The position numbers and the translations under genes were made by a program. DNA of 64,000 nt. Origin: a virus. Lineage: Duplodnaviria; Caudoviricetes. Of this stretch, positions 16,900 through 60,293 are shown in pieces (position 1 is the stretch's first letter; every line of letters starts with the position of its first letter). The stretch spans positions 42,320-106,319 of IMG/VR virus record IMGVR_UViG_3300033062_002592; one strand, given 5' to 3'. The notes beneath the pieces were generated by a model. The model was not told the origin of the DNA. It ran no database searches and saw nothing but the letters and a program-made list of their open reading frames with translations.

Positions 16900-17981
16900 G
16901 ATTAGTTTCAACCTTCGGAGTTAAATGTGGCCTTTCAACCTATAGTACGTATCTCGGCAACGCTCTGCAAAATTCAAAAATTTCTGTCACAGGATTATCA
17001 GAATTTCCTTTTCCAGATGAAAAAGCTATTACTCCGGATTTTCAACCCAAATTTCCATTCTTCAATTGTTGGAAAAGAACAGAGTTCTATGATAGATTAA
17101 TCAAAGAAAGTCATAACTATGATATAATTCATATTCAACATCAGTTTGGATTGTTCAACAATACCTATGCTTGGATACAGCTTTTGCAAAAGATTAAAAA
17201 GCCCATTCTTACAATCCATGATATAGTTCCACCAAATGAGCAGCTTTCAACCTATTTCACAGAAACATTTCACCATGCTGATAGGCTCATAGTACATACG
17301 AATACTTGCAAAAATATGCTTGAAAGTTGGAACTGTCCAAAAGATAAAATCGAATTGATTCCGCATGGCACAAAACTCATAGATGTTCCCACCAAAACTG
17401 AAGCTCGTAAGGAGCTTCAACTTCCAGAAAATGCAAAGATAATTTTATCATGGGGATTTATTTGGGAATCCAAAGGCTTGCTAGAGCTAACGAATATTCT
17501 TTCAGAAGTTAAAAAAACTTATCCAGAAGCAATTTTAATTCATGCCGGCGGCGTTCACCCTATATTGCAGAAATCGCAATATGTTGCGAACATTTTAAAA
17601 GCCGCAATAAAATCTGGGCTTGGACCAAAAGATTTAATTATAACCCAGTGGGTTCCAGAAGATAAAGTGCCAACATGGTTCGGCGCTGCAGATGTAATTG
17701 TTTTGAACTATATGAGAGGCAGTGCCTCAGCCAGCGGTGCCGCGCACAGAGCTATGGCTGGTCATCGACCAATTATAAAAACAGATGATCCATGTGTTGA
17801 AGATATTACAGGTTATACCGTTGCGCGTTTCGATATTAATGCTCTCTATAATGCGATATTGAAAGTTCTACAGGATGAAGTTTTGCAGAAAACTTTGGTT
17901 GAACAGGCAGAAAAAGCTTCCATAGAAACTTCGTGGCAAAACGTTGCTTTGAAGCACAAAAAGCTCTATGGAATGTTTTGA
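16890..17981 (+). CDS. GT4-like glycosyltransferase
   Basis: CGLSTYS, IHIQH, IPHG, WGFIWESKG, SASGA, SWQNVA; 3' end overlaps the convergent gene by 16 bp. Confidence 0.85.
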   Translation: MQLGLVSTFGVKCGLSTYSTYLGNALQNSKISVTGLSEFPFPDEKAITPDFQPKFPFFNCWKRTEFYDRLIKESHNYDIIHIQHQFGLFNNTYAWIQLLQKIKKPILTIHDIVPPNEQLSTYFTETFHHADRLIVHTNTCKNMLESWNCPKDKIELIPHGTKLIDVPTKTEARKELQLPENAKIILSWGFIWESKGLLELTNILSEVKKTYPEAILIHAGGVHPILQKSQYVANILKAAIKSGLGPKDLIITQWVPEDKVPTWFGAADVIVLNYMRGSASASGAAHRAMAGHRPIIKTDDPCVEDITGYTVARFDINALYNAILKVLQDEVLQKTLVEQAEKASIETSWQNVALKHKKLYGMF

Positions 17982-19783
17982 GGCATTCCAGGTATTCCCG
18001 GAAATAAACGTTTTCTAAGCCATTCCCAAAAGTTCCATTGATGTTGAGATGCCATAACTGGATAGTTTATTATTGGAATAACATTTCCTAATTCAACTTT
18101 ATTTGTAAAAGTACATATCGATGTATAACCTTGACTATCAAATTTATGTTCTAAATCTATAAGCGCCAAATTTGCAGGAGTAAATCCTTCTGAACCTATA
18201 TTTATTAAATACATATTTCCGACTTGTAAACCTGGACTTCCTGTTACAGTTATGGTTGTTTGAATTATTGGATCTTTTTGTCTTATAATTAACGTATCTG
18301 CAATATTTTGGCAATATAGATTACTATTATATGTATTTGAATTTTCTATCTGCGGCCTAAATCCATATAAATTTTGACTTGTAATATTACTTCCAATTGC
18401 TTGAAATTTTGTTCCAATATAAAGTCCATCAAGAAATATGTTTGCCTGTCCAACAGCACCGCCATTCCAAGACCCACTTGTAAGAAATGTAATTGAATTT
18501 ATATTAAACCAATCTGGATACCCTATTCTTTTCCAACGGTAGGATCCTGTTGTGGAGTCTTGACTTCCTATCTGACTAAACCCTTCATATTCTGGCCCAA
18601 GAAATAAAGTATATTCTAAATATCCTGCATATCCCCCACCAATTCCCCACCATTTATAATGGTCTTCTATTCTTGATTCAAAATAATTGTTTGAATCAGT
18701 TTCAAGCCTAACATAACATTTTACTGGAGTTTCTAATGCCCACAAAGTTCCGTAATATACATGCAAAAAGTCTCCATTTGTAACGAACAAAGTTTTTGGT
18801 AATGTTTTAGTTGCGGTAAATACCACATTATCTCCATTTTGAAATCCTGGATTTCCAATGTAAAAATCAATAGAATAAGATCCAGAAATTTTATTAATGT
18901 CATCATAAATACGTGTTGAGCCAGTGTCAATTCCACGTATGACATCTGTAACTCTTGAAGTCCAACTGCTTCCTGTGGTTTCACTTCCAGTTTCAGTCCA
19001 AATATCGTGGTCTTGGGGCCAATCACTACCAGTCCAACTTGGATCCCTCTGCCCAAAAGCATAAACTTGGTTTATAACATGTGATAATTCTCTATCTACC
19101 CTGTAATCTTTAATATTTGCACCAGTTGTGAAGACTTCTGCTCCAGCTACACTATCTCTTGGAAGCCAATGTAATTTTTTATTAACATCAACATAAAAAT
19201 CATAGGCTACAAAATCACTAATAGTTTTCATAATATTAAAAACTTTTTCATTTTCTACACTCGAAGGATATTCTGTAGCTGAAGCCACAATATATGCATC
19301 ATCTGTACTTAGATTTCCTTTTGTAGAGCCAGTACAAAGATTTCTTAAACTTTTTACAATATTATCAGCAGCATCATCCTCAGGAAATAAATCATCATGA
19401 TAATATCCACGACTTTGTAAGATTCTATCCATGCATTCTTTATAATCTCTACCTATAAAAGTTCTTAACCAACCATTTCTTGCAGAAAATTCGCTTCTTA
19501 TTGTTTCAATTTTTCCCGCAAATTGGTTCGTGCTACCAGTGATATCATATCCATACCAAATTTTTACATCTTCAAAAACATTAATATCTTTAAAAGCTCC
19601 GGGCACACCAAGTATAGCTGTTGTATCTGGTATTATAATTTCAAAAGATCCAATTGTGCTTGTTAAGCCCTGTTTTACACTTAATGAAGTCACATAATTT
19701 GTGGCGCCATAACCGAAAGCATATTTAAGAGTTGAGCCACTCCAAAATTCAACTCTGTAAACTGGAATTGCTGGAGCAGACAT
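17966..19783 (-). CDS. tail tip / baseplate hub-like protein
   Basis: Last gene of the tail operon; FAGKI, GRDY, YDFYVD..KKLHW, INQVYAFG, LYG, IDLEH pattern of hub/late-control-D-like proteins. Confidence 0.6.
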   Translation of the reverse strand: MSAPAIPVYRVEFWSGSTLKYAFGYGATNYVTSLSVKQGLTSTIGSFEIIIPDTTAILGVPGAFKDINVFEDVKIWYGYDITGSTNQFAGKIETIRSEFSARNGWLRTFIGRDYKECMDRILQSRGYYHDDLFPEDDAADNIVKSLRNLCTGSTKGNLSTDDAYIVASATEYPSSVENEKVFNIMKTISDFVAYDFYVDVNKKLHWLPRDSVAGAEVFTTGANIKDYRVDRELSHVINQVYAFGQRDPSWTGSDWPQDHDIWTETGSETTGSSWTSRVTDVIRGIDTGSTRIYDDINKISGSYSIDFYIGNPGFQNGDNVVFTATKTLPKTLFVTNGDFLHVYYGTLWALETPVKCYVRLETDSNNYFESRIEDHYKWWGIGGGYAGYLEYTLFLGPEYEGFSQIGSQDSTTGSYRWKRIGYPDWFNINSITFLTSGSWNGGAVGQANIFLDGLYIGTKFQAIGSNITSQNLYGFRPQIENSNTYNSNLYCQNIADTLIIRQKDPIIQTTITVTGSPGLQVGNMYLINIGSEGFTPANLALIDLEHKFDSQGYTSICTFTNKVELGNVIPIINYPVMASQHQWNFWEWLRKRLFPGIPGMPQNIP

Positions 19784-20673
19784 TATATTACCTCAATTAC
19801 ATCTAAAGTGAAACTTCTTTCCTGAGGTCTTCCACCTCGGTCTTCAAAATCGATTTTTGAAAAGAATACATTTGTTATAGGTATTATATTATATCCTCTT
19901 TCATCAATATAATTTATTGAACCAGTTGTTCCAGGCAAAGCTCTAAGCCATGCTGAACCTGAATCATTATACGTATAACCCTTAATAGCGAAAACTCTGT
20001 TTTTTGTTCCCATACTTTGTATAACATCAAAGTTAGCCATTGGAATATCGTGTACTACCGTTCTTTGAATTTTTTGTTCCGTAATTTGATTGGCAATTCC
20101 AGATTTTAAGGGTGTACCAATAATTCTAAAGTTGAAGTTTTTATATGTTGGAATATATGCCAACCAACTGCCTCCTCCATCGGTTGAATAATATCCATCT
20201 TCTTGCCATGTTGCTCCACTATAAACACCCGGACTTACTCCCATCCAATATATACAATTAGATGTGTCTCCTGTACCTAAAACTGGTCTTACAACAATAT
20301 TATATGTAATGCCCGGTCTCAATATTATATTTGGAATCACTCTAATATCATACCAGCTCCCCGTGGTGTTTGAAGTTATATCTGCCGAAGCAAACGCCCC
20401 GCTAGATATAACCAATCCTGAAGGAAAGCCAAGAGATGAATTATAGATACATGCCCATATTGAGGGTGGAACACCAACTTTAAAAAGCTTAAGTTGTATA
20501 GACCATATATTGATACTTTTTCCTAAACCAAAGTCTCCAAGAGCAAAGCTTTCAGAAAGCCAGTTTGTGCCAAAAATGCTTCCCGAAGCATTATAAGAAT
20601 CCTCATAGTATTCAATTTTCTGAGGAAAATATGGAAAGAGTTCTCTTATGTTATTATAAATTTTGATTACCAT
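19783..20673 (-). CDS. distal tail (Dit-like) protein with an N-terminal beta-sandwich insertion
   Basis: Follows the tape measure gene; C-terminal about 100 aa (VHDIP..DVIQSMG..F.IKG..LRALPGTTG..DF.D.G.RP.ER.F.L) paralogous to 59733..60293. Confidence 0.5.
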   Translation of the reverse strand: MVIKIYNNIRELFPYFPQKIEYYEDSYNASGSIFGTNWLSESFALGDFGLGKSINIWSIQLKLFKVGVPPSIWACIYNSSLGFPSGLVISSGAFASADITSNTTGSWYDIRVIPNIILRPGITYNIVVRPVLGTGDTSNCIYWMGVSPGVYSGATWQEDGYYSTDGGGSWLAYIPTYKNFNFRIIGTPLKSGIANQITEQKIQRTVVHDIPMANFDVIQSMGTKNRVFAIKGYTYNDSGSAWLRALPGTTGSINYIDERGYNIIPITNVFFSKIDFEDRGGRPQERSFTLDVIEVI

Positions 20674-21711
20674 TTATCTGCCGCCTCTTCTTCGAGCTTC
20701 CTGAGCCATTCTCCAAGCTACAGTATCCATCATGTTATCAATATCTACAGTTGATGAAACAGGTCCAGTATTCAAAGTAATATTTATATTATTTAAATTA
20801 GTTCCAGCAGGTGTTTGTATTATTGGTTCACTTTTTTGCGTATATACATTTACTCCCATTGGTGGAACAACTTCGTTTTTATAGTTATACATATTTGCTA
20901 TCATTGTTGATGTATTTGTAGTTGTATTTGAGGACGGAAAAACTTCATTTTTATAAATTGGGGGATTTCCCACTGTTAATGGACTGGGCATTTCTTTTTG
21001 CATAAACGTATTTGTGTTTGCCGTTGTAAAGTTATATATATTCATTCCTTCTGGTATAACAGTTTCACCTTTATGTACAAGCGCAAGGCCTGTTTTTGTA
21101 ACAACTCCTCCTTTTTGTAGATATGCTATTGTTGATACTATTGGTGCATAAGTTGCCACAGCTCCTGCAACGCCTCCCGCAGCCGCAGCAGCAGTTTCAG
21201 CAGCAGTTGCAGCCCACGCAGCGGAAGCAACATGGGTATAAGAAGTCGCCAGTGCCTCATTTGATATAACCTTTTGAGCATCTCCAATTAAACCAAGTTC
21301 TTGTGCTATCCTAAACAAATCTACAGCAGTTACAACAATCCTCATTGCAGCACCAACTCCATAAACTGTTGCTGTAACTAATTTCAAAACTTCATTATGG
21401 TTGAAAAAATAATTATTAAGAACTGATAAGGCTCTGCCCATAAGCATGAAATCCCAGCTTGCGCTGCGAAGAGGAGCTATTCTTTCCTGTAAAGTTTCTG
21501 TATTTTCTCGATTAGCTCTCGAAAAATCCATCGTTGTTGTTGCAGTTATTTTTGTAGCGCCTTGTAAATCCGCCAATCCACTTTTTGTTATTTCAATGCC
21601 AGAGGTGTCAGCATCCGATGTAACATTGATTCTTATCTCTATGGTATCTCCAGCTCCCCACCCACTTGTAAATGTTCCTCCTGCACCTCTAATATCCATT
21701 CTTGCCGCCAT
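20674..21711 (-). CDS. short tape-measure-like protein
   Basis: Ala-rich helical core; LQKGGVV.KTGLALVHKGETVIP motif typical of TMP C-termini; position after the tail chaperones. Confidence 0.7.
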   Translation of the reverse strand: MAARMDIRGAGGTFTSGWGAGDTIEIRINVTSDADTSGIEITKSGLADLQGATKITATTTMDFSRANRENTETLQERIAPLRSASWDFMLMGRALSVLNNYFFNHNEVLKLVTATVYGVGAAMRIVVTAVDLFRIAQELGLIGDAQKVISNEALATSYTHVASAAWAATAAETAAAAAGGVAGAVATYAPIVSTIAYLQKGGVVTKTGLALVHKGETVIPEGMNIYNFTTANTNTFMQKEMPSPLTVGNPPIYKNEVFPSSNTTTNTSTMIANMYNYKNEVVPPMGVNVYTQKSEPIIQTPAGTNLNNINITLNTGPVSSTVDIDNMMDTVAWRMAQEARRRGGR

Positions 21712-21712: not shown

Positions 21713-21916
21713 TTATGTCATCCTCATTTTACTTTCCATTTGTTTCAATTTATCTCTTCTTTGAGTTTCCAACTCATTATCTATAATTATAAATTCTGAA
21801 ATGGTTTTTGCATCTTCTTTTTCAAGCTGGCTCGGCAAACATTGAAATGCTTTGCACAAGTTGTACTTAACTATAATTGGATTTAATGTTTTGTCGTAAG
21901 CCAGCTCAATTATAAA
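21713..21916 (-). CDS. -1 frame extension of the tail assembly chaperone (gpGT-like; not in the ORF track)
   Basis: Open -1 frame FIIELAYDKTLNPIIVKYNLCKAFQCLPSQLEKEDAK...MRMT*, entered through slippery A AAT TTA at 21919-21913. Confidence 0.75.
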   Translation of the reverse strand, partial: FIIELAYDKTLNPIIVKYNLCKAFQCLPSQLEKEDAKTISEFIIIDNELETQRRDKLKQMESKMRMT

Positions 21917-22254
21917 TTTTGTGTTTCAATGTTTCTAACAAGATTTAATTCTGAAGATATTTGAAAGAGGCGTTCTCCAAGCTGTCCATCCATATTATGA
22001 ATTTCCTCAATTGTAAATGGAATGAACTTTCCATCTTTTTCATAGAAAACAGTCTTCAAAAGCAATTGTTCATTAAAGTGCGTACTGTCATAGCTTACAG
22101 CTCCAGAAAAAGGATCCACATGGTTGCATTCTGCTGATACAGCATTTTTTTCTCCCCATGTCCATTTGCGAAAGCCAAAACGTTGACCGCTGCCAGATGG
22201 AATCTCCGTAACGCCTAGTTCACCCTCTTTTTTCAATATATATGTTTCTTTCAT
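21910..22254 (-). CDS. tail assembly chaperone (gpG-like)
   Basis: Lies between tail tube and TMP; ends in slippery heptamer AAATTTA just before TAA; SD GAGGAGG. Confidence 0.75.
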   Translation of the reverse strand: MKETYILKKEGELGVTEIPSGSGQRFGFRKWTWGEKNAVSAECNHVDPFSGAVSYDSTHFNEQLLLKTVFYEKDGKFIPFTIEEIHNMDGQLGERLFQISSELNLVRNIETQNL

Positions 22255-22310
22255 TTAATCGACCTCCTCGGCCTATTTTATATTTTTACGAATTTAAAAA
22301 ATTGGAAAAT

Positions 22311-22736
22311 TTAAGTGGTAGATGATACAACACTGCCAGTGCCTATGAAATCCCATGTTTCACTAAAGATAGTTGAGCCCGGTCTATATGATGGTGTAGC
22401 TTTGCTCAATTTTAGGCCGCTTATAGTTATATAAGGCAAACCAGCAGCAGAGCCGCTACGGTTGGGCCAAATCTGAATATCCATATAATCTAATGGATTT
22501 TCACCCTTTGCCATCCATGCCCACGGACCAGAGCCAGAATAGAATCTTTCTATAGTAACCGTTGTTTTGTAGCATCCTTCAAGAATTGCTGCAAGATATC
22601 TTGAGCCGCATTCTTCATGCTCTTTTATTCCTTGATCCAAATCGTAGGATACTCGTTGAATTCCGCTGAGTCTTATGTAAGCACCACTACCAGTTTTAAT
22701 GAATGTATCTATCTGCCATCCTGCATATACTGGAAT
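22311..22736 (-). CDS. tail tube (major tail) protein; likely start is ATT at 22736, not the TTG at 22640
   Basis: Frame stays open upstream (IPVYAGWQIDTFIKTGSG...GIQRVSYDLDQG) to an ATT 9 nt after GGAGG; beta-rich 141 aa; position before the chaperone. Confidence 0.65.
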   Translation of the reverse strand: MPVYAGWQIDTFIKTGSGAYIRLSGIQRVSYDLDQGIKEHEECGSRYLAAILEGCYKTTVTIERFYSGSGPWAWMAKGENPLDYMDIQIWPNRSGSAAGLPYITISGLKLSKATPSYRPGSTIFSETWDFIGTGSVVSSTT

Positions 22737-22758
22737 ATTCTCAATCCTCCTTTATTTT

Positions 22759-23247
22759 TTATACTGTAACTCCTTTATTATGTTTAACTATATAAGCGTG
22801 GCCACTTAGAATTAAGAGTGGCGGTCTTATACTTAAATTATCCATTCTTCGCCATCCTGTAAGATATAAAAATTTTTCAATTTTATCATCGTCTTGTTTC
22901 AAAATGCTTCCGCTTCTAAGAATTCTTTCAGTTTCTCTGCGAAGTTGATATATTGCATTTTTAGCCCAACCCAAACTTGAATTTGAATCCTGAGTTGGTC
23001 TAATATAGATTTCAAAACCCACAGATTCTAAATCTCTATAAGTCGGATCTAATCCGCAATCCAAAGGTGGTGATGAAACTTCACCGGCAGGAATTATAAC
23101 AATCTGTGGGAATGTAATGTTTTCATTGTAAAGTCTTGTGCTAAAGTGTATTCCTGAACTGTTTATTGTTGCTGCCGCAGCCAAATCTCCCATCAGAGAC
23201 CAATTGTTTTTAAGCAGAAGCATAGTTTCAATTATTGCATCAGTCAT
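22759..23247 (-). CDS. tail terminator/completion-like protein, paralog A
   Basis: FPQI, IYIRP.QDS..SLGWAKNA shared with the neighbour; neck-tail position. Confidence 0.5.
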   Translation of the reverse strand: MTDAIIETMLLLKNNWSLMGDLAAAATINSSGIHFSTRLYNENITFPQIVIIPAGEVSSPPLDCGLDPTYRDLESVGFEIYIRPTQDSNSSLGWAKNAIYQLRRETERILRSGSILKQDDDKIEKFLYLTGWRRMDNLSIRPPLLILSGHAYIVKHNKGVTV

Positions 23248-23249
23248 TT

Positions 23250-23702
23250 CTAATCTTCTCTAAACATATTATGTCTCACTTCTATCAAACTTCTTAATAT
23301 AATTGGGCGCGTTTTTATTTCATCTAAATTTCTTCGTTTAGTTATAAATATGAAATCAGAATGATTATTATCAATAAGTTCACTATTATTCCTCAAAATT
23401 TTATAAATCTCTCTTCTGATTTTATATTCTGCGTTCTTGGCCCACCCCAAACTTTGACCAGAGTCCTGTTGTGGACGAACCCAAATATTGATATTAACTC
23501 CATCATCAATTTTATACCAAGGATGTATTCCGGCTGTCAACACGCTTTGCGGACCAGAAGAATGAGTTATAGTTATTTGGGGGAATGCAATATTGTCATC
23601 GTACCAACCTGTTGTAAAATTAACATCGTTTATTGTCAAACCCGATTCTGTGAGACTCCAATAATTTCGCAGAAGAGACAATATATTTAATTGTATATCC
23701 AT
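23250..23702 (-). CDS. tail terminator/completion-like protein, paralog B
   Basis: Start MDIQLN via TAATG overlap; FPQI, IWVRP.QDS..SLGWAKNA. Confidence 0.5.
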   Translation of the reverse strand: MDIQLNILSLLRNYWSLTESGLTINDVNFTTGWYDDNIAFPQITITHSSGPQSVLTAGIHPWYKIDDGVNINIWVRPQQDSGQSLGWAKNAEYKIRREIYKILRNNSELIDNNHSDFIFITKRRNLDEIKTRPIILRSLIEVRHNMFRED

Positions 23703-24127
23703 TAATATGCACTTCCTGAACGAGGCACCAAGCGTCTCACAATAGCATATTTTGAAACTATGACATCTCCATTTAATCTCCAAACATGCCTTGATAATAT
23801 CAAATATCTAATTCCTGAACCTGATGGAATAATGCATTGATCCCACTGCGCTAAATTAACATCGGGATTTACATAAACTCTTTCAAAATCGTCTTCGTAG
23901 AAACCTGCAGGTATAACAATATCTGTGGCGCTGATATGTTGTACTAAAGCTTTGAAGCTTCCAGTTGTCCATATTGTTTGAGAATCTCCATATCCATATG
24001 TTATCGCAGAACTGGTATCATAAGCGCTGCTGGTATCCACAGAACGTTGAAGCCATTGGAGCCATTCTCCATTCTGAGCTATTAAATATTGGAATTTTTG
24101 TTTTGCATTATTCCAATTTAGATGCAT
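23702..24127 (-). CDS. head closure (stopper)-like protein
   Basis: Size, beta-rich pattern and position after the adaptor. Confidence 0.5.
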   Translation of the reverse strand: MHLNWNNAKQKFQYLIAQNGEWLQWLQRSVDTSSAYDTSSAITYGYGDSQTIWTTGSFKALVQHISATDIVIPAGFYEDDFERVYVNPDVNLAQWDQCIIPSGSGIRYLILSRHVWRLNGDVIVSKYAIVRRLVPRSGSAY

Positions 24128-24138
24128 ATTTCATCACA

Positions 24139-24603
24139 TTAGAAATAGCTTGGAGCCGTGTCACTCCAAGTTGTTGTTGGACCTTCGGCACTTACTTGTA
24201 TAGGTTGAATAGCTCTAAGGTGTAACTGTGCGGATTCTTTGAATTGTTCTATGAGATTTCTATAAGTTGATAAAAGCTGAGGCTGTTGCACTGTAACACC
24301 AGCAGTCCAATTGAAACCGTCAACTATTACATCTCCACTTAAAAGTGTTATGAGTCTCATACAACTATAATCAAGTTCACAGGTTCTAACATGGTTTGAA
24401 GTTATAGGGTCTGTAGATTGCATTATTGATAAACCCAAAATTCCATATAAATAATAATTAGCCAAGTTTATTTGTGCAAGGACACTTCCGCTGGAAATTC
24501 CTTGCCCCCAGAAATAATATTGATTATCTGAACCGCTGTAAGCACCATTTAATGCCAATCTTATATCTTCACAGGTTATAACTGGATTTGTATCCGTACT
24601 CAT
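24139..24603 (-). CDS. head-tail adaptor-like protein
   Basis: Helical 154-aa protein (ITCEDIR...INLANYYL) in the neck position. Confidence 0.5.
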   Translation of the reverse strand: MSTDTNPVITCEDIRLALNGAYSGSDNQYYFWGQGISSGSVLAQINLANYYLYGILGLSIMQSTDPITSNHVRTCELDYSCMRLITLLSGDVIVDGFNWTAGVTVQQPQLLSTYRNLIEQFKESAQLHLRAIQPIQVSAEGPTTTWSDTAPSYF

Positions 24604-24611: not shown

Positions 24612-27600
24612 CTATTCATCTATATATGATTCTTCTCCTTCTTCATTAAAATCTGGTTGACCATCTTCCTTTGATAACCATGGAGAATCGGGAGAGGTTG
24701 GTTTCAAAAAGCCCGAAGAGTCCCCCTCTTTCTGAGTCCATTTTGTATCACTTATACCTGGCTGAAGCCACACGTTCTCCGCAGAGCTTCTTCCAAGCCA
24801 TGTTCTTCTTATAATAACTTGACCTTTTGCATTAACACTATATACATAGTCGCCGAAGCTTAAAAGCTGCATATATGGATATACTTTTATAAGATAATCC
24901 TTTATTGATGTAAATGCGGGCGTTGTTTTTATATTTTTTTCAGAAAAGTCTATAAATCTTGATAAAACTGAGAAAACTTGGTCTGTATATCTTGTAAATC
25001 TTGGAACAACATCAAAATATTCATCAGTATTGTTTAAAAGTCTTGGCAAAACTTCAATTATAGAATCTCTATAATAAGCAGCTCCAACAAACATTCTTAA
25101 AAGTTGGTCATATCTTGCAGCATACCTTGGGCTTGTTTTTATAATTTCATCTTGATATCTTTCAAGTCTTGGAAGAACTTTTAAAACTTCCTCTTGTTGC
25201 GTCCAAAGCCTTGGAATTGTTTTAAAAACTGCATCTATAAATAATAGAAATGTGGGTTTAACTCTGATAAATTCATCCATTGCAGATTTAAATCTTGGTA
25301 AAGCCTTGAATATTTCATCATATTGAGTTATAATAACTGCGCCGGGAACACTTGCAAGTATTGTAAAAAGCTTATCGCCATATGACATCAATTTAGGAGT
25401 GAGCTTTATATTTTTATCATTGAATGATGTCATTCTGGGCAAAAGTCTTAGAAGTTCATCAATTTGAGTTAAAAATCTTGGATTAATTCTAATTATTTCA
25501 TCTTTATAAGATTGGAGTCTTATTAAAATTTTGTATATTTTATCTGAATGTGATAACATTCTCGGCATAAATTTAAGAAATTCTTCTTTGTAATTTACAA
25601 ATTTTGGAGTAGTTTTAAAGGTATTTTCTTTGAATGACATAAATTGTGCTTTAACATTAAACAAGTTATCTACATCTAACTTTAATTTTGGTAAAACTTT
25701 GATTATTTTATCAAAATTGGACATATTAAAACCAACAATCAATTTAATAAGAGTATCTTGATATAACATGAATTTTGGAGTAATTTTCAAATGTCTATCA
25801 AGGTAAATTCTTTGCATTATAAGAACTTTAAATACTTTATCAATATGTTCCATAAGTCTTGGATTGATTTTAATTATTTCATCTCTGTGGGCTTGAAAAC
25901 GAGATAAAATCTTATAGAGAGAATCATTATATGCTATAAATTTGGGCGTTATTTTAAATACAGAATCAAGTCTGGACAAAAATAAAGGCATAATTTTAAT
26001 AAGTTCATCTTTATGGAATTTCAATTGAGGCAAAACTTTAATTATACTATCAAAATTACTTACATTATAACCTACTATCAATTTGTAAAGTCTTTCTCCA
26101 TATGAAACAAACTTTGGAGTTAATTTCAAATGTGTATCAGAATATTGCATCATTCTTGGTAAAAATTTAAAAAGTTCATCTGTTTGTTGCATGAATTTTG
26201 GATTAACTTTGATTATTTTTTCTCTAAAACTTTGAAAACGCAATAAAATTTTATAGAGGGAATCTGCATAAACCAAGAATCTTGGTAAAGCCTGCAGATT
26301 TTTGTCATTAAATGCGGTAAACTTTGGATAAAATTTAATATATTTATCTGTCATATTTAAAAATCTGGGAGTAACCTTTACATTTTTGTCAAAATGCGCT
26401 AAAAGTCTGGGTAAAATCTTTATTATAGCATCTGCATGTGAAGTAAATTTGGGAATTATTTTAAAAATTTCATCAGAATAAGACTTAAATTGAGGTTTTA
26501 CACGAATGATTTTATCAAGTTGCACTTGCAATCTTGGAAGCAAAATCAGGCATTTTTCTGCATATGATACGAATCTTGGAGTTAATCTAATGTTTGTATC
26601 AGAATATTGCATCATTCTTGCGAGAACTTTAAGCACCTGATCCACTTTTTGCATAAAAGCTGGATTAACCTTAATTATTTCTTCTTTAAACGATTGAAAT
26701 CTCAACAAAACTTTGTAAAGTTCTTCAGCGTGTTGCATAAATCTTGGAAAAGTTTTCAGAAATTCTTCCTGAAAAGATAAGAATCGCGGATTTATTTTAA
26801 TCTGTTTATCTCCATAAACCATAAATCTGGGCAAAATTTTGAGATTTTCATCCTTTTGAAATGATAGTCTCGGTAAAGTCTTCATAAACGTATCAGTATT
26901 TGTTGGAAACCTTGGCAACATTTTTAAAATATTGTCAAGTTGGCTTCTGTAAAGAACTAAAAGTCTATAATATTCATCTAAACCATAATTTTGAAATCTT
27001 GGAGAAAATTTGAGTATTTCATCTTTATTGGAGCTTATCCTTGGCAAAGCTTTGACATAAACATTGTCAGCGAAACGTGGAAAAGTTGGAATAATTCTTA
27101 TTAATGAACCATCAAAACTCAAAGTTATGGGTTCTGATAAATAAGTACGGTTTGCGGGCAAAGAACTAAGTCTTCCAGCACCAGTAGGAATCCATAAATT
27201 ATTAAATCCAATCTGCCAAACTCCATTTTCGCTAAAATTCCACGAACCACTGTTGGGACCATAAAGGAAGTTAATACTTCCCGTTTTAAGTAACGCAAGT
27301 TGAACAGTTCTATTAGGTATATTTATATTATACAAATCCGGATCCAAAATATGATATGGATATTCATAAGATAATTCTTCCACTGTAACAGCTAATCTTG
27401 CAGTTATTGGAACAAGTCCCATAATAAATAACAAGGCGCAGCCCTGAGCTGTACTATCATTATCATAGGTGCTAGTGTCGCTGTAAGCTCTAAATAAATT
27501 CGTAGAAGAATTATATAACGTACTATCTTTTATTAAATGGCTCCAAGCTGGTGGGTCACCACTTGGGCCTGTACCAGCCAATAATGTTTGGACATTTGAT

Positions 27601-32466: not shown

Positions 32467-32509
32467 TTTTTTTCCTCCATTTTTTTAATTTTTATTTTTT
32501 ATAAATTTA

Positions 32510-36337: not shown

Positions 36338-36366
36338 CCTCCTTTATCTTATATACCATGACCTAA

Positions 36367-37256: not shown

Positions 37257-37268
37257 AAAATCTCTCCT

Positions 37269-37301
37269 AAATTGATAAGCAAAAAAATTGCTTATCAATT
37301 T
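37269..37301. promoter_or_regulatory. perfect 14-bp inverted repeat (operator or hairpin)
   Basis: AAATTGATAAGCAA-aaaaa-TTGCTTATCAATTT. Confidence 0.6.
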
Positions 37302-38216: not shown

Positions 38217-38217
38217 T

Positions 38218-51914: not shown

Positions 51915-53347
51915 GTTACCACGCTCATTTCAATCTCCTGTTTTTGTTTATCACTTGCAAGTTTATCTAAAGTTGGGTCAGAAACCTGAACTATCATAGG
52001 ATCAAATTCAAACGTAAATTCTTTATAAACTGCAAGCGCAAGCGCCCAGACCATATCATCCATCCCAGCCTCTTCTTTCCCACTGTAGCGCGTGTGCAAA
52101 CCCATTTTAGTTGAAGTTCTCTGAATGCCATGCAGTTGCAGCTCAAGTTTCTCAGCTATAGAGCCCATATCCTTATGGGGCAAGCCCACTTTAGTTCTCT
52201 GCATGAGCATTCTTAATCTAATGATGATATTCTCCTTTACTGTGGAAGTGAGGTCAAACCCCTGAATAACATAGCTTCCACAGTATTTTTCATTGCTTAA
52301 GATATCCTGCATGGTTTGACCTCCTGGTCCACTGGCGTCTATTTTCACAGCAATTGGATTAAATTCAAGATAAAGCATTCTGATAATATCAGCCTGCTCA
52401 TCATAGTTTACTCCCGCCATTTCTTCAATATATAATGTTTTAAAAGTTTCAGGAGCCGTTTCTTCAACTACATAAACTATTGTTTCGGACGTAGTTTTAC
52501 CAAAATCAATTCCAAAATAAATCGGATTCTTCGTTTTATATCCGCTTGATATAAATTCTTTGATTTTTTGATTATTCCATATCAATTCATAAGGAAAGAA
52601 TGATAATGATTCATCAATGAATTCGGCGCAGTATTCTTGTTTAAAATCAATATCCGTCATTCCTTCTCTGAGGAACTTTTCCTGATTAGCTAGACGCGGA
52701 CATTGCCAATAAATAATTTCATGATAACTCCATGTTGTGTCGAATTTTTGGCCCAACCCTCTGTAAACAACCTGTAGAGGTTCCGTAATTTCGTAATATC
52801 GTCCACGCTTCCCCTTTGGAGTGCTGTTTAACGTAATGTGGCCGCCAATTATCTGGAAGTCTCGCACAACAATCCACAATTCTCTATCATTGGCAACATG
52901 CGCGTACTCATCAACATAAACATCCGTTTCTGGACCTCTCATTCCGAAGCCTCGAATGTTTCCAGGCTCGCTCGATGGCAATGACATAATACGTGCGCCA
53001 TTCGGTAGCGTAGCGGCCTGACGGTTGTGTTCTTTTAAATGCGGCTGTAAAGTTAATGGAAACGTGGCAAGCATATCATACCATTTTCCAAGAAGTTCTT
53101 CGGCAATGCGCTGTCCCGTAGATACCAATATAATTTGTCGACCGGGATTTGTAAACGATTTATAGATTGCTTCGCCGGCAATGGTTGTGCTGATTCCAGT
53201 TTTCTTTGATTTGTTGATTGCTCTGTTTCTTGAAGTATCCCGAATGAGATGCTTCTGGTAAGGATCCATAATCCATGGAATCATTCCATCGGGAGATTCA
53301 AGTTTAATGAAGGATTCTACAAAATTGACGGGATCCAATAAAGTCAA
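51908..53347 (-). CDS. terL: terminase large subunit
   Basis: YQ, NKSKKTGIS (deviant Walker A), VYVDEYAH Walker B, STPKG, QEYCAEF, GIDFG nuclease, DASGPG, DDMVWALALA. Confidence 0.92.
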   Translation of the reverse strand: MTLLDPVNFVESFIKLESPDGMIPWIMDPYQKHLIRDTSRNRAINKSKKTGISTTIAGEAIYKSFTNPGRQIILVSTGQRIAEELLGKWYDMLATFPLTLQPHLKEHNRQAATLPNGARIMSLPSSEPGNIRGFGMRGPETDVYVDEYAHVANDRELWIVVRDFQIIGGHITLNSTPKGKRGRYYEITEPLQVVYRGLGQKFDTTWSYHEIIYWQCPRLANQEKFLREGMTDIDFKQEYCAEFIDESLSFFPYELIWNNQKIKEFISSGYKTKNPIYFGIDFGKTTSETIVYVVEETAPETFKTLYIEEMAGVNYDEQADIIRMLYLEFNPIAVKIDASGPGGQTMQDILSNEKYCGSYVIQGFDLTSTVKENIIIRLRMLMQRTKVGLPHKDMGSIAEKLELQLHGIQRTSTKMGLHTRYSGKEEAGMDDMVWALALAVYKEFTFEFDPMIVQVSDPTLDKLASDKQKQEIEMSVVTW

Positions 53348-55339: not shown

Positions 55340-56179
55340 TTAAGTTGAATCATCATCCCAGTAACTTATAAAACCACCATGTTTAGCTGCTGCTGAAGAA
55401 CTTAAGTAAAGCGTGCTTCCGGTAACTGCAGTTTTAAACAGAATTGATGGTGGGTTTACACTTATTGTGTAACCTTCGTTTCTATCAAAAGGCATTTCTC
55501 CACTCAACATTGAATAATCAAGTCCGCTTCCAGAACTGTACCAAGCCATCCATTGAGTGCCGGAACCACTGCTGTTATAAACAATACTATAAATTTTTAA
55601 ATGTTTATTAGCAACACCTGTAATTACTGATGATAATGAATTCGCAGTGCTTGTAACTGCAATAGGTACAGATTTAAATGTTGATTCCGGTACTAATGTA
55701 ACCTGTTGAACAACTCGTGTACAGTGTACTTCATCAATATAAATTGGAGCAGTATTGGCTATACTGGCATAAATCATTATAAATTTAATATCTAACGAAC
55801 TGGTTCCTCTATATTCATAAAATGTCCATGCTGAACCCGAAACAGTAATATCATTTAAAGTATCTGTGGTTTCATCGCTTAATTTGAATCCTGCGCCAAT
55901 AAGAGTTTGACTTCCACTTTCAGATATTGATTGAGCCCAAAAACTAAGAATAACTTCCGATGCTTTTAATGGCTCAGTATATTGATATATATATACTCCC
56001 GGATCCAAATTTGCAGAGTACCTATCTACAAGAACGGGTGAAGTAATAATTGATGCTCCATTTGATTCCCATCCACTTAAACTTCCAGCTTCAAATCCTC
56101 CGTTTTTCAGCAAGTTGCTGGTATTGACATTTCCACCTGCTAAATAAAGTATTTTGCTTATCGCATTTTCTTCACTCAT
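55340..56179 (-). CDS. CBM4/9-like carbohydrate-binding virion protein
   Basis: NLLKNGGFEAG..GW...LSFWA...W..Y...IYIDEV. Confidence 0.65.
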   Translation of the reverse strand: MSEENAISKILYLAGGNVNTSNLLKNGGFEAGSLSGWESNGASIITSPVLVDRYSANLDPGVYIYQYTEPLKASEVILSFWAQSISESGSQTLIGAGFKLSDETTDTLNDITVSGSAWTFYEYRGTSSLDIKFIMIYASIANTAPIYIDEVHCTRVVQQVTLVPESTFKSVPIAVTSTANSLSSVITGVANKHLKIYSIVYNSSGSGTQWMAWYSSGSGLDYSMLSGEMPFDRNEGYTISVNPPSILFKTAVTGSTLYLSSSAAAKHGGFISYWDDDST

Positions 56180-56192
56180 TTTATATCACTCC

Positions 56193-56789
56193 TTAAGGAG
56201 TTTCTCCGTAAAGAACAGCCACACTTACCCATTGAGAAGAAGCGGCGCCAGTTACCATTACACGAAGAGAAAGAGGACCTACAAAAGTATGTATTGGTAC
56301 TCTAGATTCAAAGGTAAATGGAATTATTGTGGTTGATGACTCAGAAAATATTCTTTTATGAATGGCAGATCCAGACATTAAATTGAATGCGCAATAAACA
56401 GGAGATATACAATAATAGCCATATATTGAACCAGTCTTGCCTGCAGTAACACTTCCAGTCCAAACTTGTGTACCCGTTGTAGTAATAGGTGTTACAGATG
56501 AACCCGAACCTTCTATCCATCTAGGCTCTTTATAAACACCCCAACGCAACAATGAGGCGCTGCCAGTATCAAGAGTTATAGGAAGATTAATTGTTGAACC
56601 AGTTATCTGCAGTTGCGCACTCAACAGAGTTGAACCGGTGATACCAACTGCTCTGGGATCGATATATGACCCAGAAGCATCAGCAATAGTTAAAACCACG
56701 GCTTCAGCATGAGCTGTGCTGCCGCTGAGCCATGTTCTTAATCTTTTTCCCGCTGCATCAGTTGGTACTTGAACATAACTTTCTGACAT
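56193..56789 (-). CDS. putative virion protein, [ST]GS-rich
   Basis: MSESYVQVP.D..GK start; 9 [ST]GS in 198 aa. Confidence 0.6.
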   Translation of the reverse strand: MSESYVQVPTDAAGKRLRTWLSGSTAHAEAVVLTIADASGSYIDPRAVGITGSTLLSAQLQITGSTINLPITLDTGSASLLRWGVYKEPRWIEGSGSSVTPITTTGTQVWTGSVTAGKTGSIYGYYCISPVYCAFNLMSGSAIHKRIFSESSTTIIPFTFESRVPIHTFVGPLSLRVMVTGAASSQWVSVAVLYGETP

Positions 56790-56811
56790 ATTTTCACATC
56801 AAATTATATAT

Positions 56812-57507
56812 TTAAAACTTTATGGTTCCCAGACCATTAATGTCTAATGGTATATAAATTGGAGGAAGAAAAGTTGCAATACAGCCGACATAATTTAGGA
56901 ATGATTGACCAGTGGTTCCAACAGATGCCGTTCCAGTTGTTGACACTATTTTTTCGCAATAACCATTTGACATTTTTCCATCAGTTATGGTACCGTCAAG
57001 CAAAGTAAACCCGTTTGTTGGATTACTTTGAGCAGTTGACAAAATTGTAGTTCCTTGTACTATGGTACCTATCCAAAGCTCATCTGCTTTAGAAGTAACA
57101 CTTGTAGTTCCGCTTAATAATGTTGGTCCTGCTCCGCTGCCACTGGCAACTTTGTCAAGAAAACTGGATGTCGCTATTCCTGAATATTCACAAACATTAA
57201 TTACTCCGCCCAAATCAGGATTGCCTGTATAGGCAACACTAATGCTGTTAGAAGCATTTGCAGAAACTATTCCAGCCCATATTTCAACATCCACTCTTTC
57301 TGAAACGTCAAGTATTTTAGAATTTTGTTTAGTCCATAGTACATTAGTTTGAGTAACACTACTTACAGTTCTCATGGTCACTGCAGATGCGATTCCTATA
57401 GTTGCAACCAAAAAATTCCCATTTTGAGGTGGTGAAGACATAGTTACGCTTACTGGAGTAGTAAGACCATGCCCATTTGCGTTGCCTTGCACCCTTAATA
57501 TTGTCAT
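56812..57507 (-). CDS. stand-alone copy of the beta domain duplicated in the 2227-aa protein
   Basis: RVQGNA, P.NGN.LVATIG, EIWAG, NVCEYSG, ELWIG, GFTLLDG, YVGCIATF. Confidence 0.75.
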   Translation of the reverse strand: MTILRVQGNANGHGLTTPVSVTMSSPPQNGNFLVATIGIASAVTMRTVSSVTQTNVLWTKQNSKILDVSERVDVEIWAGIVSANASNSISVAYTGNPDLGGVINVCEYSGIATSSFLDKVASGSGAGPTLLSGTTSVTSKADELWIGTIVQGTTILSTAQSNPTNGFTLLDGTITDGKMSNGYCEKIVSTTGTASVGTTGQSFLNYVGCIATFLPPIYIPLDINGLGTIKF

Positions 57508-57522
57508 TTCATTTCTCCAAAC

Positions 57523-57780
57523 TCAACTAAAATGAAAAGATAAAATTGATAAATCACCAATATCAATTTCATTGTTACTGTTGAAATCGTATTCTACAGG
57601 AGCAGGCGGACATGTTTGATTAAAATATGCTGCAACTGTGCGCAGGTCAAACACATTGACAATTCCATCATGATTAACATCATATATTGAATAATTTGGT
57701 TTATTAACAACAGCAGTAACAAAAGCTACTGATAGTAATAACCAAGATGCAATAAATATTGCAATCAATATTTTGTTCAT
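57523..57780 (-). CDS. secreted or membrane-anchored stand-alone dockerin
   Basis: Hydrophobic N-terminus followed by YDVNHDGIVNVFDL...YDFNSNNEIDIGDL. Confidence 0.75.
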   Translation of the reverse strand: MNKILIAIFIASWLLLSVAFVTAVVNKPNYSIYDVNHDGIVNVFDLRTVAAYFNQTCPPAPVEYDFNSNNEIDIGDLSILSFHFS

Positions 57781-57794
57781 TTTTCTTGCCTCCT

Positions 57795-58184
57795 TTATCT
57801 TATAAAATAATAATCTGCCCAAACTGTTTTTGCGTTGCTTCCAGTGTTAAAGAAAGTAAAAATCAAATTGCTTCCGGATGCAATAAATTTACCGATTTCA
57901 AGCACGAAACTTTCGGGGACAGTTTTTGTATAAATATTTTCGCATGTTACAAAATCTGAACCACTTAAGTTCCAAAAATCACCATCATTAAATGAACTCA
58001 TATGAATTCCGAATTTTATCAAACTTGCATCAAAGGTCAATGTATATGTATCATATGTAAATCCTGATGATCCTGGAATGATGATTCGTCTACCAACAAT
58101 GTAGCTTGCTTCCAGTTGTGGATTATACTGTCTGGTCGGAACTCGTGTATAGTAGATTTTCGGTAAATTTATTGTAGCACTCAT
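57795..58184 (-). CDS. hypothetical (putative virion) protein
   Basis: 129 aa, 2 SGS. Confidence 0.6.
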   Translation of the reverse strand: MSATINLPKIYYTRVPTRQYNPQLEASYIVGRRIIIPGSSGFTYDTYTLTFDASLIKFGIHMSSFNDGDFWNLSGSDFVTCENIYTKTVPESFVLEIGKFIASGSNLIFTFFNTGSNAKTVWADYYFIR

Positions 58185-58378
58185 TTCTTAGCAAACTCCT
58201 TCAACGCAGGTCTATCAAGCTCTAGGAGCATCAGCGCTGCTAGAGCGCAGAAAACTTTACCAGAATAATCTACAGATGTAGTATAGATTCCTCCGGTAGT
58301 TTTCTTTTCACATGGTCTGTTTTTACACCGTGAACAATACTTTTCAAAGTACCATTCAATCGGTGATTTTATGGTCAT
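58181..58378 (-). CDS. small Cys-rich protein
   Basis: CSRC..C...C; SD GGTGA. Confidence 0.6.
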   Translation of the reverse strand: MTIKSPIEWYFEKYCSRCKNRPCEKKTTGGIYTTSVDYSGKVFCALAALMLLELDRPALKEFAKK

Positions 58379-58384
58379 TTCATC

Positions 58385-58648
58385 ACCTTTCTAGAGCAGA
58401 GCCTCTTTCAGCCGGATATGATGCGCTGAATTCGTTCAGGCTCAACATATCCATGTTGCCTTACTCTGTTTCTCTAAGGTAGTGAAACTTCTAGACGCAC
58501 CCGTTTACTCAGGCATCGCTCAACCATCTCGATTCAGCCACCACATATTAACGCAAAGTTGGCCGACTCTGCGAGAATTGCCGGCGCTTAAACCTGCTTG
58601 GCGAAGCTTATCAAGAGCGCGTGCTGTGCTTAATCTAGTTTCACCTTT
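58385..58648. ncRNA. candidate structured non-coding RNA (strand uncertain)
   Basis: GC-elevated 260-nt gap in a gene-dense region with several nested stems (see findings). Confidence 0.4.
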
Positions 58649-58650
58649 TA

Positions 58651-59721
58651 TTAATATGAAATACTTATTAGAAGTCCATCTTGAAAGGTCAACCATTCTC
58701 CTGATGATGCGCCCGTAAAAACGTAAGTGCTTGTAGTTATTCCTTGGGAATTACTATATGAACGATGATGACCTTTAAATCCTATGTCTCCAGCTGAAAT
58801 AACATCACTATCTGTTGCTAAACTTCCACTGGATCCTCTCCAAAGATGCGTATCAAAGTTGGTAGTTCCAGAACTCCAACCAAATGTACCATCATAAGAT
58901 ATTATGAATCTTCCATATGCTACACCCGCATTATATATTGCAAAAGCTCCAGCGGTGGTTCCAGGTGTAACAGTTGTTGCAATAGCAATGTCGCTTGAAG
59001 TTGTAAGAACTTTTAATACTCCAGCACCCCTAATCTCTGTTTGGCCATTTTTTCTTATTGCAAAATTTTCACTAGCTGAACCAGAACTCAAAACTCTTAG
59101 CATTGATGCTGATGATCCCGCAGCATTATCATGGGCAATCATATCTATGTAAGAGTCTGGAGCGCTGGTGGCACTGCGCATTAATAGTCCTATGGTGTCA
59201 AAACTATCCAATATAGTTATTGCTTGTCTAAATGGTTTTTTACCAAGATATCCTAATCCTTGACCAATAAATAAAGCACACCAATTAGAATAATTGCTCA
59301 TACCGGCTTCAATATCAACACTTACAGAGCTTTGTGCATCACCATATGGAGGGTCATCTACGCCGCAATTATTATTAAGGTCAAACTCGGCAACATGCAC
59401 AGCTCGATGATAATTTTTATTAACCAAAGGATTAAAAGAAAAGGTATGAGAAGTGGGACTATTTTGTGATTGCAAATATAAATCAACAGCATCGCCACTG
59501 CCCATATTTGGACCATTATCTAAAAGCAGCGCAGCCGCAAATAATGCTTCACTTGATCCTGTCAAGTTGCGTGAAACATTGCGGATTACTTGGCTGGACC
59601 AGATAGGTGGGGGACCACCCCAAATATCTGTTGTTGAAAACATATCGGAGCCTGAGCCCCAAACATTAGCTGAAGTCAACATTTCATATTGCATTTTTGC
59701 CCTGCTTATGTCTATGCTCAT
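58651..59721 (-). CDS. putative tail fibre/tip protein
   Basis: Gly/Ser-rich beta protein with C-terminal F.DGLL motif typical of fibre ends; many [ST]GS. Confidence 0.55.
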   Translation of the reverse strand: MSIDISRAKMQYEMLTSANVWGSGSDMFSTTDIWGGPPPIWSSQVIRNVSRNLTGSSEALFAAALLLDNGPNMGSGDAVDLYLQSQNSPTSHTFSFNPLVNKNYHRAVHVAEFDLNNNCGVDDPPYGDAQSSVSVDIEAGMSNYSNWCALFIGQGLGYLGKKPFRQAITILDSFDTIGLLMRSATSAPDSYIDMIAHDNAAGSSASMLRVLSSGSASENFAIRKNGQTEIRGAGVLKVLTTSSDIAIATTVTPGTTAGAFAIYNAGVAYGRFIISYDGTFGWSSGTTNFDTHLWRGSSGSLATDSDVISAGDIGFKGHHRSYSNSQGITTSTYVFTGASSGEWLTFQDGLLISISY

Positions 59722-59732
59722 TTTTATTTCAC

Positions 59733-60293
59733 CTAAAAGTTCAAATTATAATAGTTACCCACATTTGTTGAATTGCAAAAAACACTTCCGCTGTTTGTTG
59801 GGAATGTGAATGTACCAACGTTTGCACCATCTACAAAAACGTAGCCAGTTGCATACTGTTCATTTATAGGAGCAAATCTTCCAACAATAGCTCTGATTCC
59901 ATCAATTACATAAACTATACCTGTAAGTGTGGCTTCAGTTTCAAAACTTATGGCGTTTAATATAAATTCTCTCTCTACAGGTCTTTCTCCTTTGTCTTTA
60001 AAATCAATTTTCTCAAAATAAATTTGAGTCAAAGGAACATTAAAGGCTTCTGATTGAAACTCAAAATATCCAGTTGAACCAGGTAAACTTCGTAAAACAT
60101 CACTTGTAGCATTATAATTTATTCCTTTAAAAACATAAACCGGTAACTTTCTTCCCATATTTTGAACTATATCCTGATTTATCGTTGCAAGGTCATGGAC
60201 TATATTTCGAGAAACTGTTTTTTTTGTCACATCTTGTATAATAATGTTTTGGATAAGAACCATGTTAGAATCATAGAGTTTGGCTGCAGGCAT
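59733..60293 (-). CDS. paralog of the Dit-like domain of 19783..20673
   Basis: VHDL...DIVQNMG..FKG..LRSLPGSTG..IDFKDKGERP.EREF.L. Confidence 0.6.
   Translation of the reverse strand: MPAAKLYDSNMVLIQNIIIQDVTKKTVSRNIVHDLATINQDIVQNMGRKLPVYVFKGINYNATSDVLRSLPGSTGYFEFQSEAFNVPLTQIYFEKIDFKDKGERPVEREFILNAISFETEATLTGIVYVIDGIRAIVGRFAPINEQYATGYVFVDGANVGTFTFPTNSGSVFCNSTNVGNYYNLNF

Follow-up and report, generated by a model that had tools for sequence, protein, structure and literature searches.

The subject of this analysis is a tripeptide, Ser or Thr followed by Gly and Ser ([ST]GS), in the proteins encoded by a tailed-virus genome, the IMG/VR virus record IMGVR_UViG_3300033062_002592. We studied the last 64 kb of this 106,319-bp record (the window, to which all coordinates below refer). 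Its plus-strand left arm (492-17981) encodes glycosyltransferases (GTs) and sugar enzymes, and its minus-strand right arm is the structural module, with 43 proteins (13,475 aa), many of them without any family. Pfam matches to Phage_capsid, Phage_portal and Terminase_6N/6C place the virus in Caudoviricetes, and a model of the major capsid protein (MCP) matched HK97 and other capsids with a probability of 1.00. An earlier note on this DNA had proposed, from hand counts, that [ST]GS recurs in the outer virion proteins and that the virus's own GTs glycosylate it. The principal genes of the structural arm, with the number of motifs in each product (individual proteins are named by the first coordinate of their genes), are as follows:

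17966..19783, minus strand: tail hub-like protein; 11 motifs (0.73 expected)
19783..20673, minus strand: distal tail protein; 4 motifs (0.43 expected)
20674..21711, minus strand: tape-measure candidate, an internal protein (PHROG tape measure, E 4.5e-5); 0 motifs
21910..24603, minus strand: small tail/neck proteins 21910 (1 motif), 22311 (3), 22759 (1), 23250 (0), 23702 (3) and 24139 (2)
24612..31295, minus strand: giant fibre-like protein of 2,227 aa; 27 motifs, all in residues 1-1,349
31849..33058, minus strand: two small virion proteins adjoining the MCP gene, of 205 aa (12 motifs) and 182 aa (5 motifs)
33122..34051, minus strand: HK97-fold MCP (Pfam Phage_capsid, Foldseek HK97); 4 motifs, at residues 56, 135, 156 and 239 of 309
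34133..34579, minus strand: 148-aa head protein, decoration candidate; 3 motifs, all kept in the relative G001
34596..35804, minus strand: protease/scaffold candidate (weak PHROG match to head maturation protease); 0 motifs
36077..38961, minus strand: motif-bearing proteins 36077 (3), 37302 (10) and 38218 (4), with the motif-free 36367 protein between
40610..42607, minus strand: portal (Pfam Phage_portal); 0 motifs in 665 aa
42617..50426, minus strand: four spike/fibre proteins with 3, 23, 14 and 33 motifs; right-handed beta-helix domains in two (45726, 47748)
51908..53347, minus strand: large terminase (Pfam Terminase_6N, Terminase_6C); 0 motifs
55340..59721, minus strand: further motif-bearing proteins 55340 (CBM_4_9-like, 5), 56193 (9), 56812 (1), 57795 (3) and 58651 (4)

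The name 'hub' reflects gene position only, Pfam and PHROGs giving no match for this protein.

An ordered tripeptide in the outer virion proteins

Expected counts were calculated from each protein's own composition, and each protein was shuffled 2,000 times. [ST]GS occurs 190 times in the structural arm against 23.2 expected, an excess of about 8-fold, to which SGS (110 against 12.9, z 27) and TGS (80 against 10.3, z 22) both contribute; by enrichment, these are the top two of all 8,000 tripeptides in the arm. The order of the residues is strict. The permuted tripeptides gave observed/expected counts of 15/10.3 (SGT), 8/9.0 (TGT), 24/12.9 (GSS) and 24/12.9 (SSG), and the neighbouring ones 2/7.9 (AGS), 2/6.9 (NGS), 2/5.1 (DGS), 5/11.1 (GGS) and 7/9.4 (SAS). 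Position 1 takes Ser or Thr, position 2 is strictly Gly (neither SAS nor TAS is enriched) and position 3 is strictly Ser, so that 75% of all xGS tripeptides are [ST]GS. Hydrophobic residues (Ile, Val, Trp) are preferred immediately before the motif and small ones (Thr, Ala, Gly) after it, and no longer consensus was found in the flanks.

The motif is carried by 26 of the 43 structural-arm proteins, mostly unrelated to one another, at a density of about 2 per 100 aa; 18 carriers are significant individually, and in the 2,000 per-protein shuffles 15 proteins reached p<=0.002, with z up to 15. The carriers span the MCP and its small neighbours, neck, tail, hub, spikes and, within its N-terminal 1,350 residues, the giant fibre. 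No motif occurs in the other 17 proteins, which total 4,070 aa and for which the average rate of the arm predicts about 14 (P = 7e-7); they include the portal, the terminase, the tape measure, the protease/scaffold candidate and, counting regions as well as whole proteins, the two 14-aa-repeat sequences described below. Elsewhere, the motif is at chance, with 2 occurrences against 2.2 expected in the left arm and 5 against 4.7 in the other 42 kb of the genome, or 7 against 6.9 over some 18,000 aa of non-structural protein.

These counts agree with those of the earlier note wherever the two can be compared. Its hand counts for 31849 (12), the hub (11), 56193 (9), 32510 (5), the MCP (4) and 36077 (3) were reproduced; the 'dozens' that it saw in the spikes and giant fibre are 23, 14, 33 and 27; the terminase, portal, protease/scaffold candidate and tape measure have 0 each, as it had said, and so does the 36367 protein; and the two or so motifs that it had given for the left-arm enzymes are exactly two. 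Its statement that the motif recurs across unrelated folds is borne out by the 26 carriers, and the composition correction that it had suggested, with GSS, SSG and AGS as comparisons, left the enrichment standing and the controls far lower.

An excess of this kind might arise as an artefact of low-complexity fibres, of shared ancestry or of a DNA repeat. The fibres and spikes are indeed rich in Ser, Gly and Thr, and in a cultured marine T4-like phage of Pelagibacter used as a negative control, HTVC008M, [ST]GS was raised 1.6-fold; GS[ST] (1.8-fold) and [ST]GT (1.6-fold) were raised equally, which is generic clumping, with no ordered [ST]GS excess. In the structural arm, by contrast, the excess withstands both composition correction and shuffling, and it does not depend on the four large fibres and spikes (93 against 12.0 expected in the other proteins). 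The motifs are moreover encoded by 86 different 9-mers that use both AGY and TCN serine codons, without a flanking consensus, and selection therefore acts on the peptide and not on the DNA. We rejected a DNA-level motif on these grounds, and with it the broader artefact explanation, to which the shuffles, the removal of the fibres and the 9-mer diversity leave almost no probability.

The third most enriched signal of the arm, LP[RK]F, proved to be a separate matter. It belongs to a tandem repeat of 14 residues (approximate consensus D-x-x-x-K-x-L-P-[RK]-[FLM]-x-x-[YF]-x, matching no family) that occurs in two proteins and carries no [ST]GS: it makes up the C-terminal ~830 aa of the giant fibre-like protein (24612-27100, residues ~1400-2227) and fills nearly all of a 475-aa protein encoded upstream of the terminase (53371-54798). 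Among the other structural genes, the adjacent tail genes 22759-23247 and 23250-23783 are paralogues that both match one protein of the relative L020, one having a single motif and the other none. The 330-aa protein 37302-38294 has a weak, sub-threshold match to dockerin type I at residues 34-73 (E 0.009).

Position, conservation and turnover of motif sites

We read the secondary structure around the motifs in AlphaFold models of the MCP (pLDDT 71) and hub (pLDDT 63). Of the four MCP sites, one is in the E-loop, one just past the spine helix and the other two in A-domain loops; all are at loop or strand ends. In the hub, non-regular structure accounts for 24 of the 33 motif residues, as against 47% of the protein overall; the motifs lie mostly in loops and hairpin tips, and typically a strand ends at the Ser/Thr and the Gly-Ser lies in the turn. 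These positions fit a location in exposed loops. The claim that the motif tracks surface exposure was judged by protein roles and by the secondary structure of the two modelled proteins.

Homologues of the MCP in a large protein collection range from 100% down to 39% identity. The four sites persist to about 54% identity, one of them shifting register (TGS at 135 becomes SGS at 136) with the motif kept; in the outgroup at 39-49% identity there are 0-1 motifs, and other small residues (KQAGS, ATT, NST) occupy the equivalent loops. When orthologues in this genome and four diverged relatives were compared, the motif triplet was kept in 54 of 90 comparisons (60%), against 46% residue identity outside motifs, and Ser was conserved in 65% of cases inside motifs and 40% outside. 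Ser and Thr were swapped at position 1 in 12 cases, and Gly and the last Ser, where kept, were unchanged. Most motif sites of the small tail/neck proteins are kept in G001. At the same time each lineage shows motif gains of its own. Eleven hub homologues of about 40% identity have 9-17 motifs each (138 in all, against 12.4 expected), and a motif fills some alignment columns in 8-11 of the sequences and many columns in a single sequence. As judged from these alignments, the motif is shown to be under purifying selection, yet it also turns over. Since some sites are retained and others are lineage-specific, selection would bear on individual sites as well as on overall density.

Another explanation is that the tripeptide is a purely structural device, unmodified, serving for instance as a beta-turn, hairpin cap or solubility element in exposed loops, and fixed as such in the outer proteins of the clade. 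Preceded by a hydrophobic residue, it sits where strands pass into turns, as such a device might, and some of the spike motifs form part of short periodic beta-helix-like repeats. The same folds, however, manage without it in the outgroups, both in the MCP loops cited above and in a hub homologue with none, and loops of non-structural proteins show no excess. A specificity so strict that AGS, NGS, DGS, GGS, SGT, TGT and SAS stay at or below chance is hard to obtain from turn propensity, and so is its switch-like, simultaneous appearance in over 20 unrelated proteins. We therefore consider a structural role without modification to be improbable.

The sugar-gene arm and a clade-specific glycosyltransferase

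The left arm runs towards the structural module and ends in a GT4 gene that overlaps the hub gene tail to tail. Its glycan genes are the following:

16890..17981, plus strand: soluble GT4, clade hallmark (Pfam Glyco_transf_4, Glyco_trans_1_4, Glycos_transf_1); overlaps the hub gene convergently
15760..16899, plus strand: second GT4-type enzyme (Pfam Glyco_transf_4); its last 10 nt overlap the start of the hallmark GT4 gene
15365..15760, plus strand: small helical DUF2153-like protein (Pfam PF09921 just below cut-off); adjoins the GT4 genes
14028..14849, plus strand: GT2 of the conserved core (Pfam Glycos_transf_2, E 7e-27); homologues in every ingroup locus
12907..14043, plus strand: GT1-family enzyme (Pfam Glycos_transf_1); G001 orthologue 44% identical
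492..1751, plus strand: outlying GT1/GT4-type enzyme (Pfam Glycos_transf_1); G001 orthologue 62% identical
4595..12902, plus strand: lineage-variable sugar-tailoring block (Pfam; NCBIfam), with a CgeB-like GT (4595), FkbM-type methyltransferase (5548), SDR (6115), methyltransferase (7048), SDR (7658), thiamine-diphosphate (ThDP) enzyme (8503), GT2 (10274), CDP-glucose 4,6-dehydratase (11281) and sugar O-methyltransferase-like protein (12330)

The seven GTs and sugar enzymes that the earlier note had placed at 492-17981 were recovered by Pfam and NCBIfam: four GTs are of GT1/GT4 type (492, 12907, 15760, 16890), two are GT2 (10274, 14028) and one is CgeB-like (4595). The arm further encodes three SDR sugar dehydratases/epimerases, methyltransferases and the ThDP enzyme, which is acetolactate-synthase-like (NCBIfam), and the 11281 product passes the NCBIfam equivalog cut-off for CDP-glucose 4,6-dehydratase (429.6 bits against 278). 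NrdD, a dUTPase-like protein and a weak dNK-like protein are encoded there as well. None of the 20 left-arm proteins (0/20) has a transmembrane-like segment, and its glycan enzymes, all soluble, include no flippase or oligosaccharyltransferase; the soluble proteins therefore fit with direct cytoplasmic protein glycosylation, and a lipid-linked surface glycan is unlikely because the arm lacks a membrane enzyme. The ThDP enzyme, CDP-glucose 4,6-dehydratase and methyltransferases (8503-12333) recall the routes by which 6-deoxyhexoses with branched chains or methyl groups are made, yersiniose (YerE) being one example. The window showed no gene for a sugar-1-phosphate cytidylyltransferase; the relative L037 has an NTP_transferase gene.

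Eight diverged lineages, of 31-49% GC, are rich in the motif (G000, G001, L020/L029, L030, L034, L037, L038 and L024), and a motif-rich contig, P0099, also has the GT4-hub arrangement. Every motif-rich lineage with a visible neighbourhood has a homologue of the 16890-17981 GT4, 42-64% identical; in L024 the GT region lies outside the visible locus. The GT4 gene overlaps the hub gene convergently in this genome and in six lineages (G001, L029, L030, L034, the P0099 contig and L038), and in L037 it lies near the hub gene, not directly beside it. Past the GT4 come a GT2, a GT1/GT4 and an SDR gene. The second GT4-type enzyme has homologues of 39-46% identity in L029, L030 and L037, and the DUF2153-like protein is kept in at least four lineages, with homologues in G001, L034 and L030. 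The tailoring genes vary: the ThDP enzyme and CDP-glucose dehydratase are found here, and aminotransferases, C-methyltransferases and radical-SAM enzymes in relatives. Radical-SAM/SPASM and B12-binding radical-SAM genes stand in or beside the glycan cluster of relatives (L020:209-2705; L038:2005-3336) and are absent from the window.

The GT4 family is tight, with 57 clusters at 40% identity or more, many of them on 96-106-kb contigs, followed by a gap to 27% or less. Judged by these sequences, it is a hallmark gene of the clade without a close cellular relative. A scan of viral contigs with the GT4 profile matched only G001, a metagenome scan with the hub profile returned three loci only, and a tblastn search of cultured phages with the GT4 16890 and GT2 10274 gave a single 24% match, in an uncultured megaphage. 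Profile matches in the PDB were to generic GT4 enzymes, 6kih (a sucrose-phosphate-synthase-like protein) and 7mi0 (an unnamed GT).

Outside the clade the tripeptide fades. In an unbiased scan of tripeptides, SGS and TGS came first in two ingroup loci, L020 and L029, and ranked within the top five in L024; the outgroup showed neither a comparable excess nor any enriched tripeptide particular to it. The outgroup L022/L023, with an MCP 49% identical, has [ST]GS 4 times against 3.0 expected; L003-L012 (MCP identity 24-29%) reach 1.5-fold when pooled; and the hub of L032 (26% identity) has no motif and no adjacent GT. The hallmark GT4 was not found in the five outgroup records, of which four, all motif-poor, have GT1/GT2 genes. 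We accordingly rejected the notion that any GT predicts the motif. Because outgroups with GT1/GT2 genes and without the GT4 lack the tripeptide, it is tied to this GT4 and not to GTs generally. The co-occurrence with GT clusters that the earlier note had expected thus holds for one enzyme among the sampled lineages, the motif being absent from outgroups that lack it, and fails for GTs at large. One outgroup, L010 (IMGVR_UViG_3300018080_000929), shows a mild excess of SGT (12 against 2.0 expected), which might be a different ordered tripeptide of another lineage.

Virion glycosylation as a proposed reading of the motif

We propose that Phi-[Ser/Thr]-Gly-Ser, in which Phi is a hydrophobic residue, often Ile, Val or Trp, is the acceptor sequon for virus-encoded cytoplasmic O-glycosylation of virion proteins, and we put the probability of this at roughly 0.55. 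The candidate priming enzyme that would read the motif is the soluble GT4 (16890-17981), perhaps together with its DUF2153-like neighbour. It would recognise the tripeptide at the point where a beta-strand gives way to a turn, its substrates being folded or in the course of assembly, and would transfer the first sugar to a hydroxyl, that of the Ser/Thr at position 1 or of the Ser at position 3. The conserved GT2 and GT1/GT4 enzymes could then lengthen the glycan chain and the lineage-variable tailoring enzymes diversify its distal sugars. The portal, tape measure, scaffold and terminase, as internal proteins or enzymes, would escape selection for the motif, and the resulting sugar coat might shield or stabilise the particle, or tune adsorption. 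Of the earlier proposal that the GTs O-glycosylate [ST]GS, an excess that is real, ordered, at the protein level, confined to outer virion proteins and tied to one GT4 speaks in favour; the part that treated GTs generically did not survive, such enzymes not being predictive. Its suggestion of a host-mimicking coat is speculation.

Several points weigh against our proposal. The modification, like the sequon, is predicted from sequence. All positive lineages form one clade, so the link between GT4 and motif amounts to a single evolutionary event, and other clade-specific genes could correlate with the motif equally well; GT1/GT2 genes, as described, are present in most of the motif-poor outgroups. 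No known protein O-GT is found among the solved relatives of the GT4. The GT cluster sits among nucleotide-metabolism genes, and some of its enzymes could act on DNA or another substrate. Confidence in the MCP and hub models is modest, and exposure was judged from their secondary structure.

Some of these points would equally suit a different account, in which the tripeptide is a site for another modification or reader (a host enzyme, a kinase, another viral enzyme or a decoration protein) and the GT cluster serves glycosylation of DNA or of the host surface. The single event behind the GT4 link, the GTs of the motif-less outgroups, and the embedding of the cluster among NrdD, dUTPase-like and dNK-like genes, with a ThyA-like gene inside the L029 cluster, all speak for it. 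Against it, neither G000 nor G001, whose records are 64-78% complete, has a match to a ThyA/ThyX-type hydroxymethylase (PF00303, PF02511), unlike what is expected of T4-like DNA base glucosylation, and membrane proteins for a lipid-linked surface glycan are missing. Moreover, no enzymes other than the GT4, GT2, GT1 and SDR core are conserved beside the structural module across all lineages, and a hostile modification by the host would favour depletion of the motif, not enrichment. This account seems to us unlikely.

Known systems share parts of what we propose for [ST]GS. Mycobacteriophage virions are glycosylated by phage-encoded GTs (Freeman et al., 2023, Cell Host Microbe, as cited in PMC12619734), and PMC12619734 places the glycans at the C-termini of capsid and tail-tube subunits. 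As far as that account goes, the likeness lies in a tailed virus that has its own soluble GTs beside its structural genes (here seven, at 492-17981, with conserved GT4-hub synteny), in capsid and tail substrates, and in the shielding coat proposed. The differences are that a three-residue motif is dispersed here through 26 proteins and not placed at subunit C-termini (compare the MCP sites listed above), that the glycan cluster is larger (seven GTs plus tailoring enzymes), and that the virus is unrelated, probably archaeal and known from sequence alone.

In Gram-positive bacteria the cytoplasmic GtfA/GtfB pair, of GT-B/GT4 type, O-glycosylates serine-rich-repeat adhesins before export, and further GTs extend the glycan. 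Priming of Ser/Thr by a cytoplasmic GT4-type enzyme followed by extension by other GTs is what we propose here as well; the substrate there, however, is a long Ser-rich repeat and not dispersed tripeptides, and our GT4 has no detectable specific similarity to solved GtfA structures. A conserved pair of this type was not found either: the adjacent 15760 and 16890 genes are not paired across the clade, and in G001 the neighbour of the GT4 is the DUF2153-like gene, the nearest homologue of 15760 being a 12907-like GT1 elsewhere in the cluster. The autotransporter heptosyltransferases (Aah for AIDA-I, TibC for TibA) likewise act in the cytoplasm, O-glycosylating many Ser at short strand-loop-strand positions of beta-helical surface proteins. 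Many Ser at strand-loop positions would be the acceptors here too, in a whole virion proteome in place of single repetitive adhesins; no left-arm protein matches the heptosyltransferase family in Pfam, all GT matches being to GT1, GT2 or GT4. With the N-x-S/T sequon of archaeal AglB and bacterial PglB our motif shares a length of three residues and a hydroxy amino acid as specificity element, but here the acceptor would be a hydroxyl. N-x-S/T is at chance in the structural arm (observed/expected 0.94) and the left arm has no membrane oligosaccharyltransferase, flippase or transmembrane-like segment, and we rejected oligosaccharyltransferase-dependent N-glycosylation on this evidence.

The genome encodes a family-B polymerase and, bearing a Rep_fac_C domain, an RFC-like clamp loader, and the DUF2153 profile matches only Sulfolobus among 14 control genomes; together these make an archaeal virus plausible. 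The earlier note's description of the virus as archaeal is no more than plausible on these grounds: a scan of GTDB representatives for proviruses found none, a search for tRNA genes made for host assignment found none, and neither the atlas nor the cluster members supplied a host taxon. The relative G001 was sampled from anaerobic landfill leachate. A more inclusive statement is that a minimal hydrophobic-[Ser/Thr]-Gly-Ser sequon, read on folded proteins by a soluble, clade-specific viral GT4, serves to coat the whole outer surface of a probably archaeal lineage, from capsid and decoration proteins to tail, hub, spikes and fibres, with a glycan whose distal sugars differ between lineages; we advance this tentatively, and would not be surprised to see it fail in one of its parts.

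To our knowledge, O-glycosylation is generally held to have no simple sequon. If true, the reading of a strict tripeptide by a small soluble enzyme would stand as a rare exception, and the tripeptide could serve glyco-engineering as a practical tag; this would also be the first case found of proteome-wide, virus-encoded virion glycosylation in such a virus; our literature search returned no description of an S/T-G-S glycosylation motif or of GT-dependent virion glycosylation of an archaeal tailed virus. The motif would also offer a read-out, from sequence only, of outward-facing virion proteins and loops. A constant sequon and priming GT with variable tailoring enzymes would resemble an arms-race surface, comparable to O-antigen diversity.

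Two further features of these genomes may be recorded. Selfish elements are frequent in the clade: several MCP homologues (P0060, P0066, P0069, P0075, P0078) are fused to Vsr/DUF559, PF18741 or LAGLIDADG endonuclease domains, and intein-splicing domains occur in a portal of 1,426 aa and a GT2 of 666 aa, at L024:1-4112 and in the P0099 contig gene 19327-21327. In the window itself, the 236-aa protein encoded at 62845-63555 contains only 0.4% Gly.

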